From the sequence record NZ_CP083859.1: 64,000 nt of DNA, one strand, 5' to 3'. The translations under genes were made by a program, and so were the position numbers. A model generated the notes under the pieces. That model had not been told where the DNA came from and did no database searches. It worked only from the letters and a program-made list of their open reading frames with translations. Shown one piece after another: positions 6,330-19,569 of the stretch; within the stretch, counting starts at the first letter, position 1; every line of letters starts with the position of its first letter. The stretch is from a plasmid.

Positions 6330-6443
6330 CCCGGTATAATCGACGTGGCGCTTGAGGCTTTTTGCCTCATGACGTGAAGGTGGTTTGTTGCCGTGTTGTG
6401 TGGCAGAAAGCAGAAAGCCCCGTAGTTAATTTTCATTAACCCA
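6330..6443 (+). promoter_or_regulatory. hok (flmA) promoter and 5' leader of the hok mRNA (tac/ucb region), now separated from mok/hok by IS150
   Basis: TATAAT at 6335-6340, then GGCGCTTGAGGCTTTTTGCCTCATGACGTGAAGGTGGTTTGTTGCCGTGTTGTGTGGCAGAAAG...GTAGTTAATTTTCATTAACC, near-identical to the R1/F hok mRNA 5' end. Confidence 0.65.
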
Positions 6444-6490
6444 TGTACTGCACCCATTTTGTTGGACGATGAAATGGAATAGTCCCTGAT

Positions 6491-7012
6491 ATGTCAAAGC
6501 CAAAATACCCCTTCGAAAAGCGCCTTGAAGTCGTGAATCACTACTTCACAACTGATGATGGTTACAGGATCATCTCTGCACGTTTTGGTGTGCCTCGAAC
6601 CCAGGTCAGGACGTGGGTTGCCCTCTATGAAAAACATGGAGAAAAAGGTTTAATTCCCAAACCTAAAGGCGTTAGTGCTGATCCAGAGTTGCGCATTAAG
6701 GTCGTGAAAGCCGTGACCGAGCAGCAGATGTCCCTCAATCAGGCTGCTGCTCACTTTATGCTTGCTGGTAGTGGTTCTGTAGCCAAGTGGCTGAAAGTCT
6801 ATGAGGAGCACGGAGAAGCTGGTTTACGCGCACTCAAGATCGGCACCAAAAGAAACATTACAATGTCAGTTGATCCAGAAAAAGCGGCGTTAGCATTGGA
6901 GCTGTCGAAAGACCGACGTATTGAGGATCTTGAAAGACAAGTTCGATTCCTTGAAATGCGGCTTACGTATCTAAAAAAGCTGAAAGCCTTAGCTCATCCC
7001 GCGAAAAAGTGA
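6491..7012 (+). CDS. insJ: IS150 OrfA (173 aa, HTH)
   Basis: MSKPKYPFEKRLEVVNHYFTTDDGYRIISARFGVPRTQVRTWV... is the IS150 OrfA sequence. Confidence 0.85.
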   Translation: MSKPKYPFEKRLEVVNHYFTTDDGYRIISARFGVPRTQVRTWVALYEKHGEKGLIPKPKGVSADPELRIKVVKAVTEQQMSLNQAAAHFMLAGSGSVAKWLKVYEEHGEAGLRALKIGTKRNITMSVDPEKAALALELSKDRRIEDLERQVRFLEMRLTYLKKLKALAHPAKK

Positions 7013-16022: not shown

Positions 16023-17699
16023 GTGAAAACGTCACCGGAGGCGCGGTCCCGTACGCTCATCATTGCGCAGCTGAACGCCGACCGTAAGGCGATAAATGCT
16101 GGCATTCATGCCGCGCTGGCAGCGCGGGGAGAACTGGGGGAGAAGGCTATTAAGGTGCCGGTGCTCGATAAAATCACCCATACGCGCCATGAGTTCAATA
16201 AAACAGAGTCCTGGGAAGCCGGGATGGTGGTTAAACGCGGTGACCGCTACCAGGATGTGGTAGCCGTTGACCGTAACGGCAGCACGGTGACGGTACGTGA
16301 TGAGGAGGGGAAGATTGCTCTGGTTTCACCGAAGGAGCTGATCACCGGTGACGTGCAGCTGTTTCGCCGCAGCGAGATGGAAGTCCGTTCCGGCGATCTG
16401 CTTAAGTTCACGGCGACCGATCGCGAACAGGGGCAGATGGCCAACCAGCGCTATACGGTGGAGTCGGTCAGCGAGGAGGGGAATATCCGTCTGAAGGGGG
16501 AGAACGGTCGCGTCACCATCAATCCTGAGAAGGTCCGGGCGCAGCAGAATCTCGACTACGGCTGGGCCGTCACCGGCTACGGCGCACAGGGGGCCAGCAG
16601 TGATTATGTCATTGCGCTTGAGGGCACGAAAGACGGACGTAAGGCACTGGCTTCCCGTCGTGCCTTCTACATTTCAGCCTCACGCGTCAAGGAGCACGTC
16701 CAGATTTACACCGACAAGAAAGCGGACTGGGTTAAGGCGGTAAAAACGCCGGAGCGTGATATCAAAACGGCGCACGATGCGCTGGCACCAGAAACGCAGC
16801 GCAAACAGGCGAAAGCCATCTGGGCAATGGGGCAGCCGGTGAATAAAACGGCCATCGGTCGCGCCTGGGTGCGCCATCAGGGCATGCAGGATGCGTCACT
16901 GACGGCAAAAATCATCCCGGCCACCCGGCGCTTTCCTGAACCGGCGCTGGCGCTGCCGGTGTATGACAACAATGGCAGGAGTGCGGGCCTGGCCATGGTT
17001 TCCCTGGTTGCCAGCCCGGAAGGGCGGATGACACAGGGGGAGACCCGGATGGTCATGACAGAACGTGCCCGTGGTGCGGTACTGCAGCGAAGCCAGTCAG
17101 GCAACACGATTGTGGCCAGTGACCTGGCGGCCGCGCTTGATGCAGTACGACATCACCCGAAGGACGGCGTGGTCTGGCAGACCGGCGATGAACCGCCTTC
17201 AGCATGGTTGCTTAAGGTGAGCGGTGGGACAAAACAGGATGTGTCGCCGGGTATTGTCTCCACGCTGACTGACGAGCAGAACGTACAGCAACTGCGCGAA
17301 CAGATGCTGGCAGACCAGATTCGCAATGAAGACGCCGGACGGAACAGGCAGCCGGAGTCGTTGCTGCCGGAAATTCCGCAGGAAGAGGTGATCAGACTGA
17401 AACCGGAAGACATTAACCCGCGTAAACCGGAACCACTCACCCCGGATGCAGATGTAATCGCCAGGGTGAGAGGTGAGGAAAACACCGGTGGACAGGAAAT
17501 GAAAGCTGCTGCAGGTGTCAGGAGTGAGCTGGAAGGTGCTGACAAGGCATCCGGTGAACAGTCGCGGGCATCGCGTGTGATTGCAGATCTGGCAAACGCT
17601 GAGCGCGACATGCTCAGGGTGGCAGAAAATACTGAACGCGGCCGCATGCCGGAGCGTGAAGAACAGACCCTCACCCGTACCATTCAGAAAGAACGCTAA
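16023..17699 (+). pseudogene. traI: 'traI, the 3' roughly 558-codon fragment of relaxase/helicase TraI (C-terminal helicase-associated and C-terminal domains only); no relaxase domain
   Basis: ...AVTGYGAQGASSDYVIALEGTKDGRKALASRRAFYISASRVKEHVQIYTDKKADWVKAVK... is the conserved region near the end of the TraI helicase domain. The frame opens 9 nt after the traD' stop with no ATG (GTG). Confidence 0.8.
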
Positions 17700-17727: not shown

Positions 17728-18513
17728 ATGAAAGTACACAAATTAGCAGCATTAATAGTTACAACATACATTGGCTTTATTGCAACAGCACACGCTTCGG
17801 CCCCTCAGCCGATATTCAGCCCGGAGCAGGAGGCCCGTATCGGGGAAATCGCAGCAGACTACCTGGTATCCCACCCGGAGATACTGGTGACGGTCAGTCA
17901 TAAGCTGCAGGAACAGCAGAAGGCACGTAAGCAGAAGATGTTTGCACTCAGCGTGATGGAGAATCAGGCGAACCTTCTGCATGATCCGGATACCCCGGCT
18001 TACGGGCCTGATAATACAAAGGTCGCGGTGATTGAATTCTTTGATTACCAGTGCGTGTTCTGCAGCCGCTTTGCGCCGGAGCTGGAGAAGGTCATGAAAG
18101 CGCAGCCGGACGTCCGCTACCTCTTTAAGGAGTGGCCAATATTTGGTGGCCGCTGGGAAGCCTCACTTCAGGCAGCGCAGCAGGGGCTGACGGTCTGGCA
18201 AAAGAAAGGGCCGCAGGCCTATGTCACCTATCACAATGCCATCTACGCCACCGGGCATAATGAAGGCAAACTGACGGTGGAGGATATTCGCGTTGCAGCG
18301 TCAAAGGCGGGGCTGGCCACCTCAGCTCCTGGCGACCATACCGCGTCTCTTGAGAAAAACAGCAATCTGTCGGAGGCGCTGGGACTCACCGGAACGCCGG
18401 GGATCATCGTCATGCCCGTTAGCGGGGCGACTCCCGACACCATCACGGTTTTCCCGGAAGCTGTAACCGCTGACAGGCTTCAGGTAGCAATCCGGAAAGC
18501 CACGGCCAGATAG
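17728..18513 (+). CDS. DsbA-family periplasmic thiol:disulfide oxidoreductase (CxxC = CVFC), signal peptide
   Basis: MKVHKLAALIVTTYIGFIATAHA signal peptide; ...VIEFFDYQCVFCSRFAPELEKV thioredoxin-fold active site. Confidence 0.75.
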   Translation: MKVHKLAALIVTTYIGFIATAHASAPQPIFSPEQEARIGEIAADYLVSHPEILVTVSHKLQEQQKARKQKMFALSVMENQANLLHDPDTPAYGPDNTKVAVIEFFDYQCVFCSRFAPELEKVMKAQPDVRYLFKEWPIFGGRWEASLQAAQQGLTVWQKKGPQAYVTYHNAIYATGHNEGKLTVEDIRVAASKAGLATSAPGDHTASLEKNSNLSEALGLTGTPGIIVMPVSGATPDTITVFPEAVTADRLQVAIRKATAR

Positions 18514-18613
18514 AAGATTTCAATTTCCTGTTTGCTGTGCCAGCCACATATGCAACCAACTTTTTTTAGCATATAGTTAAGTTCAGTAGTAAAATGCAGC
18601 GCCTCGTCGAGAG

Positions 18614-19162
18614 ATGATGATTATGGAGCCCGTCGTGAAATTTAAAATCCAGCACTTGCAGGCCGCAGTGGCACTGGTTCTTGCCAGTTTCCAGCCGCAA
18701 CCCAAAGCGGTTGCGTGTCAGCCTACGATTGTTGAACGGGTTTACGAAATGGGCTCCAGAGTCAACAAAACCGATATCAGCGAGCTCACTGTTGCTCTCA
18801 ATGACGTAGCTGAAGAATTACGCTCAAGTCGCATCGAGCTGGCACGGTATGCAGACAGCGATTTCGCCGGCGCTATCAAAGTCGCCAGCGACATCAGAAA
18901 TCATACTATCCATGTCGCAGGTATCGCAGAGTCCTTTGTTCTGATGCTGCCGGAAAAAAAAATCGTTCAGTCGTATGACAGGAATTCTGTTGAGTTTGCA
19001 TTCTTTAAGGCCATTAAAATGGTCAGTCTTGCGACTAAAAACTACCTCAGTCTTATTGATCAAATCACACGAACGACAGAAGTGCGTGACTCTGGAATCA
19101 ACCTCTCGGCCATGAATCACCTGCTGGATTCAGGCAACAGGGCAGCGGCTAAATGGCGTTAA
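18614..19162 (+). CDS. 182-aa protein translationally coupled upstream of a YafO-like toxin; putative non-canonical antitoxin
   Basis: Stop TAA overlaps the toxin ATG (ATGGCGTTAA). No Phd/YefM, RHH or HTH signature seen by eye. AT-rich. Confidence 0.45.
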   Translation: MMIMEPVVKFKIQHLQAAVALVLASFQPQPKAVACQPTIVERVYEMGSRVNKTDISELTVALNDVAEELRSSRIELARYADSDFAGAIKVASDIRNHTIHVAGIAESFVLMLPEKKIVQSYDRNSVEFAFFKAIKMVSLATKNYLSLIDQITRTTEVRDSGINLSAMNHLLDSGNRAAAKWR

Positions 19163-19569
19163 CAGCTGAGTACAGTCATGTCACGTGGGATACTTTTTTC
19201 CAGCCCACGTTTGCCGTTTACCCTGAGCTGGAGAGCCAGTTACAAGCAGAGTTCATTACGTATAAATCAACTGGCGCACCGTCAAATCTTCTTGGAAGGG
19301 ACGCCCCTTTTGATTACCCGCCATTCGCTGTCGATGCTAACGTCCAGCATATTCACGTTAATCTGCATTTCCAGCTCACCTGGAGTGCCAGACAAGAGAA
19401 TTACAACCGTACCTCAGATCACTATCTCATTTACACAGAACACATGTGGGATAGCGGCCGCTTTCTGCTGATGGGGCTGATAACACCGGCTCATGAACGT
19501 ATGCCCGCGAGAGATACACGGTTACTCAGCTACTTTTCTGAAGTTGCAGAAGATTTTCACGCTTCATAA
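19153..19569 (+). CDS. YafO-family type II toxin (ribosome-dependent mRNA interferase)
   Basis: LQAEFITYKSTGAPSNLLGRDAPFDYP...VQHIHVNL...DHYLIYTE...LLMGLITPAHERMPARD...SEVAEDFH parallels E. coli YafO FISYKRDGVLPDTFGRDALYDD...VAHIHLA...AHLVYCQG...LLIAILKPEPHKLARDN...KMAEAFR. Confidence 0.65.
   Translation: MALTAEYSHVTWDTFFQPTFAVYPELESQLQAEFITYKSTGAPSNLLGRDAPFDYPPFAVDANVQHIHVNLHFQLTWSARQENYNRTSDHYLIYTEHMWDSGRFLLMGLITPAHERMPARDTRLLSYFSEVAEDFHAS

Follow-up and report, generated by a model that had tools for sequence, protein, structure and literature searches.

Few toxins of the RelE superfamily are as poorly understood as YafO, whose dependence on the ribosome is disputed. In Escherichia coli K-12 it is encoded by yafN-yafO, located in the SOS-regulated chromosomal dinB operon, in which the gene of the 97-aa antitoxin YafN precedes that of the toxin and the two genes abut or overlap. 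DNA-binding domains are common, although not universal, in the antitoxins of type II systems, and antitoxins usually evolve faster than their toxins. Two other kinds of module invite comparison: RelBE and HigBA, whose toxins are BECR-fold ribosome-dependent RNases blocked by the C-terminal segment of the antitoxin, and phd-doc, the addiction module of the P1 plasmid prophage. YafO has been assigned to the BECR-fold RelE/ParE superfamily, the antitoxin gene lying ahead of the toxin gene (PMC11980606).

Here, we analyzed a YafO locus within a stretch of 64,000 nucleotides (the window) of the sequence record NZ_CP083859.1, an IncF plasmid of Enterobacter. The toxin of this locus belongs to the same Pfam family as that of yafNO and is likewise preceded by the gene of a putative antitoxin. 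However, its N-terminal extension differs from that of K-12 YafO, its partner is a predicted all-helical protein of 175 aa lacking the Phd/YefM domain, and it is located on plasmids and phages instead of in the SOS-regulated operon of the chromosome. The partner is also unlike the antitoxins of RelBE and HigBA, in that it has no RHH, HTH, or Phd domain and combines a long helical N-terminal bundle with a hydrophobic leader.

Operon layout and the YafO-family toxin

The ORF list contains two overlapping frames on the plus strand, 18614..19162 (182 aa from an ATG) and 19153..19569 (138 aa, also from an ATG), which follow one another in the usual antitoxin-then-toxin order, as the original prediction had recognized. 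The upstream gene had been taken at its full 182 aa, but GTG 18635 is the probable start of the partner (18635..19162, plus strand, 175 aa) because a GGAG Shine-Dalgarno sequence (18625..18628, plus strand) lies 6 nt upstream, homologues begin there, and PGAP makes the same call. This GGAG is invariant in a nine-locus alignment, and some homologues (L005, with TTG, and L006, with GTG) have no in-frame ATG upstream of the equivalent start.

A sigma-70-like promoter (18566..18595, plus strand; TTAGCA and TAAAAT separated by an 18-nt spacer, nine of 12 matches in the scan) belongs to the conserved module. A T-run and the -35 element through to the -10 element are kept in nine loci whose upstream DNA is unrelated, and homology to E. 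coli phage-plasmids (82% identity) begins at about position 18527 of the window. This single conserved promoter would serve both co-oriented genes, with the putative antitoxin upstream, and the small repeats within it were not convincingly operator-like.

The two genes share 10 nt at the partner stop and toxin start (ATGGCGTTAA, 19153..19162, plus strand). The partner frame reads ...GCT AAA TGG CGT TAA and the toxin frame ATG GCG TTA ACA, placing the partner TAA 4 nt past the toxin ATG and not inside it, as had been proposed. Eleven of the 12 loci compared have the same 10-nt overlap, and the other has a 4-nt ATGA; an overlap of this kind is consistent with translational coupling.

The Pfam profile search that had been suggested for the downstream gene confirmed its assignment to the YafO family. 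The 138-aa protein (19153..19569, plus strand; PHROG phrog_1651) matched YafO_toxin (PF13957) with an E value of 1.3e-20 and a score of 73.8 bits (gathering threshold, 25) over profile positions 2 to 100 of 101, and its homologues also carry PF13957. E. coli K-12 YafO shares 31% identity with it over 112 residues (BLASTP E value of 2e-12), and their alignment has 22 invariant columns, including F34, K38, G48, R49, D50, H66 to H68, R86, T87, P112, A132, E133, and F135. The common blocks are FxxYK, GRDAxxD, HIH, RT, LL...P, and AExF, and the window toxin keeps every residue that is invariant across clades and in E. coli YafO. The signature blocks listed in the original prediction are thus present, but their spacings had to be corrected from the alignment to F-x-x-Y-K, GRDA-x-x-D, HIH-x-x-L, and LL-x-x-L-x-x-P-x-H. 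The score against the NCBIfam equivalog PRK09885 is below the cutoff (53.4 versus 153 bits), and on these sequence comparisons the protein is a member of the YafO family and not an orthologue of E. coli YafO.

The AlphaFold model of the toxin is of low confidence (pLDDT of 58.3). The PfiAT toxin-antitoxin complex, HigB2, and RelE were its best Foldseek matches in the PDB, none of them significant (E values of 0.18 to 3, TM scores of 0.3 to 0.5), and with a model of such low pLDDT these matches cannot serve as evidence. No solved structure of a YafO-family protein was found.

The partner protein and its relatives

The partner had no match above threshold in Pfam or NCBIfam and none in PADLOC or the PDB. 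The early impression that it lacks RHH, Phd, and HTH motifs was upheld by the Pfam and NCBIfam searches, which also found no AbrB domain, and there was no fold match to DNA-binding proteins. Nor is it related to YafN (BLASTP E value of 53; no PF02604 match). Structure prediction of the partner alone, also suggested at the outset, gave an all-helical AlphaFold model (pLDDT of 85.4, pTM of 0.72) but no informative fold match, since Foldseek against the PDB and BFVD returned only generic helical bundles; a search of its profile against PDB sequences retrieved only designed coiled coils. A small canonical antitoxin hidden in the region, which would have undercut the pairing, was not found by Pfam searches of six small ORFs on both strands, and tblastn of YafN against the window gave E values of at least 4.7; Rfam gave no match, and thus no known antitoxin RNA either.

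To collect relatives, species-representative genomes were searched with patterns specific to this YafO subfamily, yielding eight loci, all eight of which carry the partner, while distant YafO clades were sampled by tblastn against phages and plasmids. Every phage and plasmid clade sampled has a partner of 175 to 210 aa ahead of YafO, so the protein was wrongly described as atypical. Conversely, a YafO gene lies directly 3' of every partner homologue with downstream DNA at hand, down to 20 to 30% identity, and the possibility that the partner is not conserved beside YafO can be set aside. YafN is the one YafO antitoxin to have been studied, yet among the cases examined the E. coli K-12 chromosome was the sole one with YafN upstream of YafO.

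Partners of 178 to 190 aa directly 5' of YafO in phage HK639 (gp17/gp18), Pseudomonas phage YMC11/02/R656 (gp093/gp092), and Klebsiella plasmid p1254-1 proved to be remote homologues (hhalign probability of 93%, E value of 3e-7; hmmsearch scores of 33 to 35 bits); their PHROGs, phrog_8416 and phrog_22162, are listed as of unknown function. Like the window pair, these consist of a partner of ca. 175 to 190 aa followed by a YafO-family toxin, and the partners share a C-terminal motif, I/V-D/S-x-x-G/A-L/M-x-x-L-x-x-x-G-T/N, as well as the N-terminal hydrophobic segment. They differ in sequence (partner identity of <20%, toxin identity of 25 to 31%), in having genes 8 to 9 nt apart where those of the window overlap, and in their location as prophage morons. 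A 205-aa partner from a Klebsiella phage-plasmid (phrog_13546) was left out of the superfamily, as its match was merely suggestive (E value of 0.0025, probability of 12%).

Wherever these partners have a public name it is "hypothetical protein," and we found no experimental work in the literature on the window partner or any homologue. The name "YafM antitoxin" is an automated label. Judging from this distribution, the long helical partner is probably the usual antitoxin of YafO toxins on mobile elements. The proposal of a new antitoxin family stands insofar as the partner belongs to no known family and is conserved with YafO; its activity is something we infer, and the idea is not entirely new, since in large computational surveys most YafO partners had already come out as unclassified (PMC10790755; PMC3141249).

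Both genes are under purifying selection. The dN/dS ratio is ca. 0.11 to 0.13 for the partner and 0.03 to 0.09 for the toxin, so that the partner evolves faster, and synonymous divergence across homologues is saturated. Codons 1 to 30 of the partner have lowered synonymous divergence; a regulatory RNA structure was considered as the cause and rejected (RNAalifold covariation of +0.81; compensatory changes in three of 54 pairs).

Conservation across the partner superfamily is widest in the C-terminal helix (INLSAMNHLLDSGNRAAAKWR, 19097..19159, plus strand), corresponding to residues 164 to 181 of the AlphaFold model when numbered from ATG 18614 and preceded by a low-confidence linker (residues 156 to 160, pLDDT of <50). 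The part shared superfamily-wide comprises the C-terminal ca. 50 residues, with Q143, L163, and G167 (numbered from GTG 18635) invariant, and profile similarity to the partners of HK639, Klebsiella, and Pseudomonas is concentrated in the helix. From the model and this conservation, the helix is a candidate toxin-binding element.

We consider it somewhat better than an even bet (a probability of about 0.55) that the pair is a type II-like toxin-antitoxin operon whose partner represents a new antitoxin superfamily, neutralizing the toxin through the conserved C-terminal helix. The gene order with its conserved overlap, inheritance as a unit, purifying selection, and the predicted terminal helix behind a disordered linker all argue for this reading, as do the decayed copies described below, in which the toxin is lost with the partner kept or both are lost, and the lack of any other antitoxin candidate nearby. 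The locus would then be an independent operon of two genes under a promoter of its own, encoding an mRNA-cleaving toxin of the YafO family preceded by its cognate neutralizing protein, and an all-helical superfamily of ca. 175 to 190 aa would occupy the place of YafN in yafNO. The partner would be made first and the toxin translated by coupling through the 10-nt overlap. Flexibly tethered to the long helical bundle, the C-terminal helix would bind and block the toxin, the mode of inhibition known from RelBE and HigBA, and the N-terminal two thirds may act as an accessory domain for stability, localization, or sensing, rather than as a DNA-binding domain of a known type. Against the toxin-antitoxin reading, it leaves autoregulation without an explanation, as the searches found no DNA-binding domain in the partner.

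The hydrophobic leader and the frameshifted alleles

The partner begins with a hydrophobic segment (18635..18718, plus strand; MKFKIQH-LQAAVALVLASF-QPQPKAVA-C) that is signal-peptide-like yet unusually conserved. By a heuristic criterion based on hydropathy and charge, all members have a positively charged start, a hydrophobic run of 11 to 13 residues (Kyte-Doolittle mean of ca. 2), and a small-x-small (AxA) site, a layout that recurs in distant members. This signal-peptide layout is an argument for an explanation that we regard as unlikely, namely, that the partner is exported by Sec or membrane associated and is not a cytoplasmic antitoxin. The pair would then link a component located in the envelope to a cytoplasmic RNase (a prophage or plasmid exclusion/defense module would be an example), or only a short-lived unexported precursor would neutralize the toxin. 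An exported partner could not classically sequester a cytoplasmic toxin, which counts against the toxin-antitoxin reading. Several observations agree with export. Ser/Thr-rich low-complexity linkers, typical of exported proteins, follow the leader in the distant members P0084, P0091, the Pseudomonas phage partner, and Pantoea At-9b; in HK639 and the Flyfo siphovirus, where the pair is a moron 3' of the tape-measure gene, it adjoins genes of the envelope type, one for a lipoprotein and one for an SmpA/OmlA protein; the slot that the module occupies in phage-plasmids adjoins defense and anti-defense genes; and frameshifted partner alleles are tolerated with an intact toxin.

However, the signal-peptide call is heuristic, and within each clade no other part of the protein is as conserved as the leader (LQAAVAL is invariant in the clade of the window, AAIGLLMQQT conserved in that of HK639), a degree of conservation seldom seen in signal peptides. 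A QQ breaks up the short hydrophobic run of the HK639 clade, and in the window partner the leader is modeled with a pLDDT of 85 to 89, as if it were within the helical bundle. A Cys after the leader is frequent but not invariant, and hence the partners are not lipoproteins. The toxin has no export signal, and its strict coupling and co-inheritance with the partner are most simply explained by direct interaction with a cytoplasmic toxin. The more specific idea that the leader is a true Sec or membrane signal, with the cytoplasmic antitoxin pool set by export or membrane insertion and not by proteolysis, appears decidedly improbable to us. If true, antitoxin lability would amount to secretion, or envelope/Sec status would be linked to a cytoplasmic RNase, and control set by export would extend to the majority of the YafO modules on phages, phage-plasmids, and plasmids.

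The partner gene also contains a homopolymer of nine A's (18954..18962, plus strand; codons E-K-K), at which frameshifts recur among natural alleles. The tract is A8 in L042, A7 in L037, and A6 in L045 and L046, and seven truncated partner protein clusters diverge immediately after LPEK. Isolates having A8 or A6 include GCA_053007785.1 and ERR4089023. The partner is frameshifted in L042, whose intact toxin is 100% identical to that of the window, and in L045 and L046, whose toxins have all the invariant residues. In L037 it is the toxin that is frameshifted and the partner that is kept, and both genes are lost together in L038, L040, and L043. The alleles with a frameshifted partner and an intact toxin fit an antitoxin role poorly; they fit the proposed model only if loss of coupling silences the toxin, a C-terminal 47-aa ORF translated on its own suffices, the frame is restored by transcriptional slippage, or the indels are sequencing errors. 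Taken with the signal-like leader, the slippery poly-A tract could point to a nonclassical control of how much antitoxin is present.

Mobile carriers and biological role

The window copy sits beside a decayed tra region, as originally noted. Upstream of it lie a C-terminal fragment of TraI and a DsbA/ScsC-like gene, and downstream, on the opposite strand, a tyrosine recombinase. The module is carried by IncF plasmids, SSU5-like phage-plasmids, an Erwinia genome contig, and two further contigs with chromosomal-looking flanking genes; pair and promoter are conserved as a unit, and the flanks differ between carriers. In the SSU5-like phage-plasmids it occupies a fixed slot, flanked on one side by PhoH, Gp49 or Sequestin or an Acb2-like gene and GrxA and on the other by an integrase, and one of these copies adjoins a type I restriction subunit. 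Transfer of the module together with a neighboring integrase was considered and rejected, as the recombinases beside the window copy and the phage-plasmid copies are unrelated.

Under the toxin-antitoxin reading, the role on the IncF plasmid and the SSU5-like phage-plasmids would be addiction by post-segregational killing, possibly with abortive infection. By analogy with phd-doc, whose toxin and antitoxin belong to families unrelated to those of the window module, the putative operon would stabilize an extrachromosomal prophage from its slot in the SSU5-like elements. Alternatively, the module might be primarily an abortive-infection defense: the partner would detect a phage cue through its helical N-terminal bundle and respond by releasing or activating the YafO RNase, with addiction secondary or absent. 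The variable cargo positions of the prophage and phage-plasmid copies, the many RelE/ParE-superfamily modules that act in defense (PMC11980606), and a partner domain large for a simple antitoxin speak for this role, which we nevertheless find improbable. Neither protein matches any PADLOC model (PADLOC-DB 2.0), and the window copy lies among plasmid maintenance functions, close to ParM and a recombinase, on a plasmid that also carries hok/sok at another place; moreover, this alternative concerns the biological role more than the mechanism and overlaps with the toxin-antitoxin reading. It is very improbable that the locus is an inert remnant, a YafO homologue no longer toxic with an unrelated upstream hitchhiker kept by linkage, for although the adjoining tra region is decayed and several plasmids have decayed copies or frameshifted partners with no obvious harm, strong purifying selection has acted on both genes over saturated synonymous divergence, the toxin keeps its invariant residues, and conservation of the pair, overlap included, extends from Enterobacterales to Pseudomonas phages.

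Among the mobile carriers are clinical plasmids of Enterobacter, E. coli, and Klebsiella as well as SSU5-like phage-plasmids and HK639-like and Pseudomonas phages. If the partner neutralizes YafO, it would define a new antitoxin superfamily and provide annotation pipelines with a model that they are missing, and the complex might stabilize YafO for structural work. It would also account for the conserved stability/defense slot in phage-plasmids that carry resistance genes.

The gene pair and its plasmid setting

The downstream gene of the pair (19153-19569, plus strand, 138 aa) can be assigned unambiguously by its sequence to the Pfam family YafO_toxin (PF13957; E 1.3e-20, 73.8 bits against a gathering score of 25, full-length domain), as recognized in the original prediction. 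It shares 31% identity with K-12 YafO of E. coli (E 2e-12) and, in the alignment, retains all 22 columns invariant between its own clade and the K-12 protein. It is not an orthologue of E. coli YafO, since it scored 53 bits with NCBIfam PRK09885, which has a cut-off of 153. The toxin structure model was poor (pLDDT 58) and none of its top fold matches (the PfiAT toxin-antitoxin complex, HigB2, and RelE) was significant, so that the BECR fold assignment rests on the literature (PMC11980606); no solved structure was found for the YafO family.

The upstream gene, here called the partner, spans 18614-19162 (plus strand) if read from the first ATG, which gives the 182 aa initially proposed. Translation from the GTG at 18635 (175 aa) is most likely, because a GGAG lies 6 nt 5' of it, all homologue alignments begin at the residue it encodes, two homologues have no in-frame ATG upstream of this position, and PGAP also chose it in identical plasmids. 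The junction reads GCT AAA TGG CGT TAA in the partner frame and ATG GCG TTA ACA in the toxin frame; the genes overlap by 10 nt, rather than the partner stopping inside the toxin start codon as had been described. The partner had no above-threshold match in Pfam, NCBIfam, PADLOC, or PHROGs and no similarity to YafN, the antitoxin of K-12 YafO, in agreement with the view that it is not of the YafN type.

IncFIB/IncFII plasmids from the Enterobacter cloacae complex are nearly identical to the window, and E. ludwigii CP123378 matches it at 100%. Upstream of the pair are a C-terminal TraI fragment (16023-17699; TraI_C, 205 bits), the sole portion of TraI left, and then a ScsC/DsbA-like periplasmic thioredoxin gene (17728-18513; ScsC_N and DSBA), while a tyrosine recombinase gene lies 3' on the opposite strand. 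Since the twin plasmids are typed as non-mobilizable and carry tra remnants, the pair was correctly placed downstream of a decayed tra region. One twin has an 84-nt TraD fragment as well. Elsewhere on the same plasmid, a match to the sok antitoxin RNA (6346-6520, plus strand; Rfam RF01794, 66.4 bits, gathering score 59) indicates a putative hok/sok type I addiction module.

Partners of YafO across mobile elements

In a tblastn search with the toxin, 637 plasmids and 17 phage records proved to carry YafO homologues. Every clade inspected had a "hypothetical" gene of 174 to 210 aa directly 5' of YafO, so the partner can hardly be called atypical, as it had been. Its length was 174 aa in Enterobacter phage-plasmids, 205 aa in Klebsiella phage-plasmids (phrog_13546), 178 aa in Klebsiella plasmid p1254-1, 190 aa in phage HK639 (gp17, 5' of gp18) and in the Flyfo siphovirus, 180 aa in Pseudomonas phage YMC11/02/R656, 179 aa in phage PhiR40_1 (PV340560.1, 222-761), and 210 aa in the Pantoea At-9b plasmid. 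In HK639 (1920-2938) and Flyfo (870-1860) the pair forms a moron immediately following the tape-measure gene and adjoins a lipoprotein or SmpA/OmlA gene.

The profile of the window's family aligned with that of the HK639, Klebsiella, and Pseudomonas partners (phrog_8416 and phrog_22162, function unknown in PHROGs) with a probability of 93% (hhalign, E 3e-7), and by itself gave 33 to 35 bits on the HK639 and p1254-1 partners (hmmsearch). The combined profile retrieved 72 clusters, Pseudomonas chromosomes among them, and those bearing a source name were all "hypothetical protein"; the 205-aa Klebsiella type is weakly similar to the window's family. The one exception met to this naming, "YafM antitoxin," is the depositor's automated label in the PhiR40_1 record, for which no experimental basis was found. 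This label collides with the E. coli gene name yafM, a gene also called rayT. "YafO/YafM" is likewise listed from automated annotation in a genomics paper on Pectobacterium. Earlier published surveys already reported most YafO partners as unclassified, and left them uncharacterised: Leplae (2011) paired YafO with Phd and guilt-by-association sequences (PMC3141249), and the E. coli SLING survey listed 13 YafO partner clusters, 8% of them known (PMC10790755). A literature test of the partner family was sought and no paper was found.

E. coli plasmids of ca. 110 kb share both genes at 82% nucleotide identity, and the homology spans ca. 18527 to 19559 of the window, exactly the promoter and the two genes. 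Conservation extends from the genes to the 5' UTR and the −10 and −35 elements, while sequence farther upstream varies. These plasmids are SSU5-like phage-plasmids (tRNA-Asn, ligase, CobT-like, and AAA genes) whose flanks share 92% identity with Salmonella phage SSU5; the phage search found no toxin match in SSU5 itself. Among SSU5-like phage-plasmids (loci L002, L017, L026, L028, and L029), the module has a single fixed position, flanked by GrxA and the integrase; PhoH and a gene that varies (Gp49, Sequestin, or Acb2/Tad1-like) precede GrxA, and CobT follows the integrase. Three different partner/toxin clades share this slot, where Sequestin, an Acb2/Tad1-like gene, a type I HsdR, and AbiGi are among the neighbors.

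The window's own partner family is small: a word-seeded search gave 42 clusters at 90% identity, and when 1.8 billion proteins were searched exhaustively with a profile, only 23 representatives at 50% identity turned up. An Erwinia genome contig and two further contigs carry homologues with 61% and 49% identity; there the module sits amid housekeeping-type genes, unlike the plasmid context, and an overlapping YafO gene follows the partner each time. Homologues at 20 to 30% come from other phage-plasmid contigs and from small metagenomic ones. In all cases with DNA available downstream, these distant members included, a YafO toxin lies 3' of the partner, and a toxin-pattern search of species-representative genomes found the partner upstream in 8/8 loci. 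The pairing, on whose conservation elsewhere the original prediction depended, thus held.

Fold and termini of the partner

The AlphaFold2 model of the partner, built on a 19-sequence alignment, was confident and all-helical (pLDDT 85.4, pTM 0.72). Counting from ATG 18614, it comprises an N-terminal helix (residues 5-24) and two short helices, three long helices (52-82, 84-110, and 126-153), a disordered stretch (156-160), and a terminal helix (164-181). The best Foldseek match (PDB, BFVD) reached only E 0.16, and the only solved structures matched by sequence profiles were designed coiled coils. Conservation across the superfamily is concentrated in the terminal helix and the preceding one, with Q143, L163, and G167 invariant (from GTG 18635) and the common motif I-D-x-x-A/G-L/M-x-x-L-x-x-x-G-N/T. 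As the toxin is the partner's one constant neighbor, this segment is the natural candidate for a toxin-binding element. RelB-, HigA-, and Phd-type antitoxins act through a C-terminal, toxin-blocking segment, which the putative role of the partner C-terminus would mirror.

At the other end (MKFKIQH-LQAAVALVLASF-QPQPKAVA-C), the partner is laid out like a Sec signal peptide by a heuristic call, a layout recurrent in every member, and distant partners carry Ser/Thr-rich linkers after this segment. The protein might accordingly be exported or membrane-associated, but we consider this unlikely. A simple signal peptide is argued against by the N-terminal segment being the best-conserved region within each clade (LQAAVAL invariant here, AAIGLLMQQT in the HK639 clade), a Gln pair after the hydrophobic run in several clades, a pLDDT of 85 to 89, and synonymous divergence 2 to 7 times lower in codons 1-30 (18635-18724) than in the remaining codons (pS 0.09 to 0.38 versus 0.64 to 0.67). 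Export of the partner would be hard to reconcile with a classical antitoxin acting on a cytoplasmic RNase. RNA structure as the cause of the low synonymous divergence found no covariation support (RNAalifold).

Frameshifted copies and the reading of the module

An A9 run in the partner gene (18954-18962, plus strand, codons E-K-K) is a recurrent frameshift site: the sequences of seven truncated partner protein clusters part immediately behind LPEK. One E. roggenkampii assembly has A8 here, next to a toxin 100% identical to that of the window. A second lineage has A6, against A7 in in-frame relatives, across five contigs from two or more sequencing runs, and its toxin is intact and retains every invariant residue. 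The tract may serve for contingency or slippage, or the indels may be homopolymer sequencing error. An antitoxin model would be kept if toxin translation starts from a weak ribosome-binding site and needs coupling, the frameshift halting ribosomes ca. 100 nt upstream and so silencing it; if the partner C-terminus is supplied by a 47-codon ORF in the original frame, which starts at an internal Met, encodes the conserved C-terminus, and overlaps the toxin start; if transcriptional slippage on A8 restores the frame; or if the indels are sequencing errors.

In E. ludwigii NZ_CP131964 (2019-2434), a 1-nt deletion shifts the toxin frame near codon 88 and the partner is intact, which fits tolerated toxin loss, while at three loci (L038, L040, and L043) both genes are deleted jointly. 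These decayed copies follow the pattern expected of a toxin-antitoxin pair. On two E. hormaechei contigs (L043 and L044; 2780-3369), the DsbA gene is separated from the partner remnant by a 75-aa Phd/YefM-like gene and a 111-aa gene; there the module looks to have been replaced by a different pair at the same site.

The best-supported reading, which we put at a probability of roughly 55%, is that the pair is a type II-like toxin-antitoxin operon, with a YafO toxin and an antitoxin of this helical superfamily, whose members preceded YafO in every mobile-element clade checked. The toxin would be neutralised through the partner's conserved C-terminal helix, expression would be coupled via the 10-nt overlap, and the likely role would be addiction, defence, or both. 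It is quite improbable that the genes are primarily an abortive-infection sensor-effector pair, a mechanism that overlaps the toxin-antitoxin reading. Both genes are under purifying selection (dN/dS ca. 0.11 to 0.13 for the partner and 0.03 to 0.09 for the toxin, with synonymous divergence saturated), and we give very little credence to an inert remnant. The YafO toxin family is a known one, and the partner family bears no database name.
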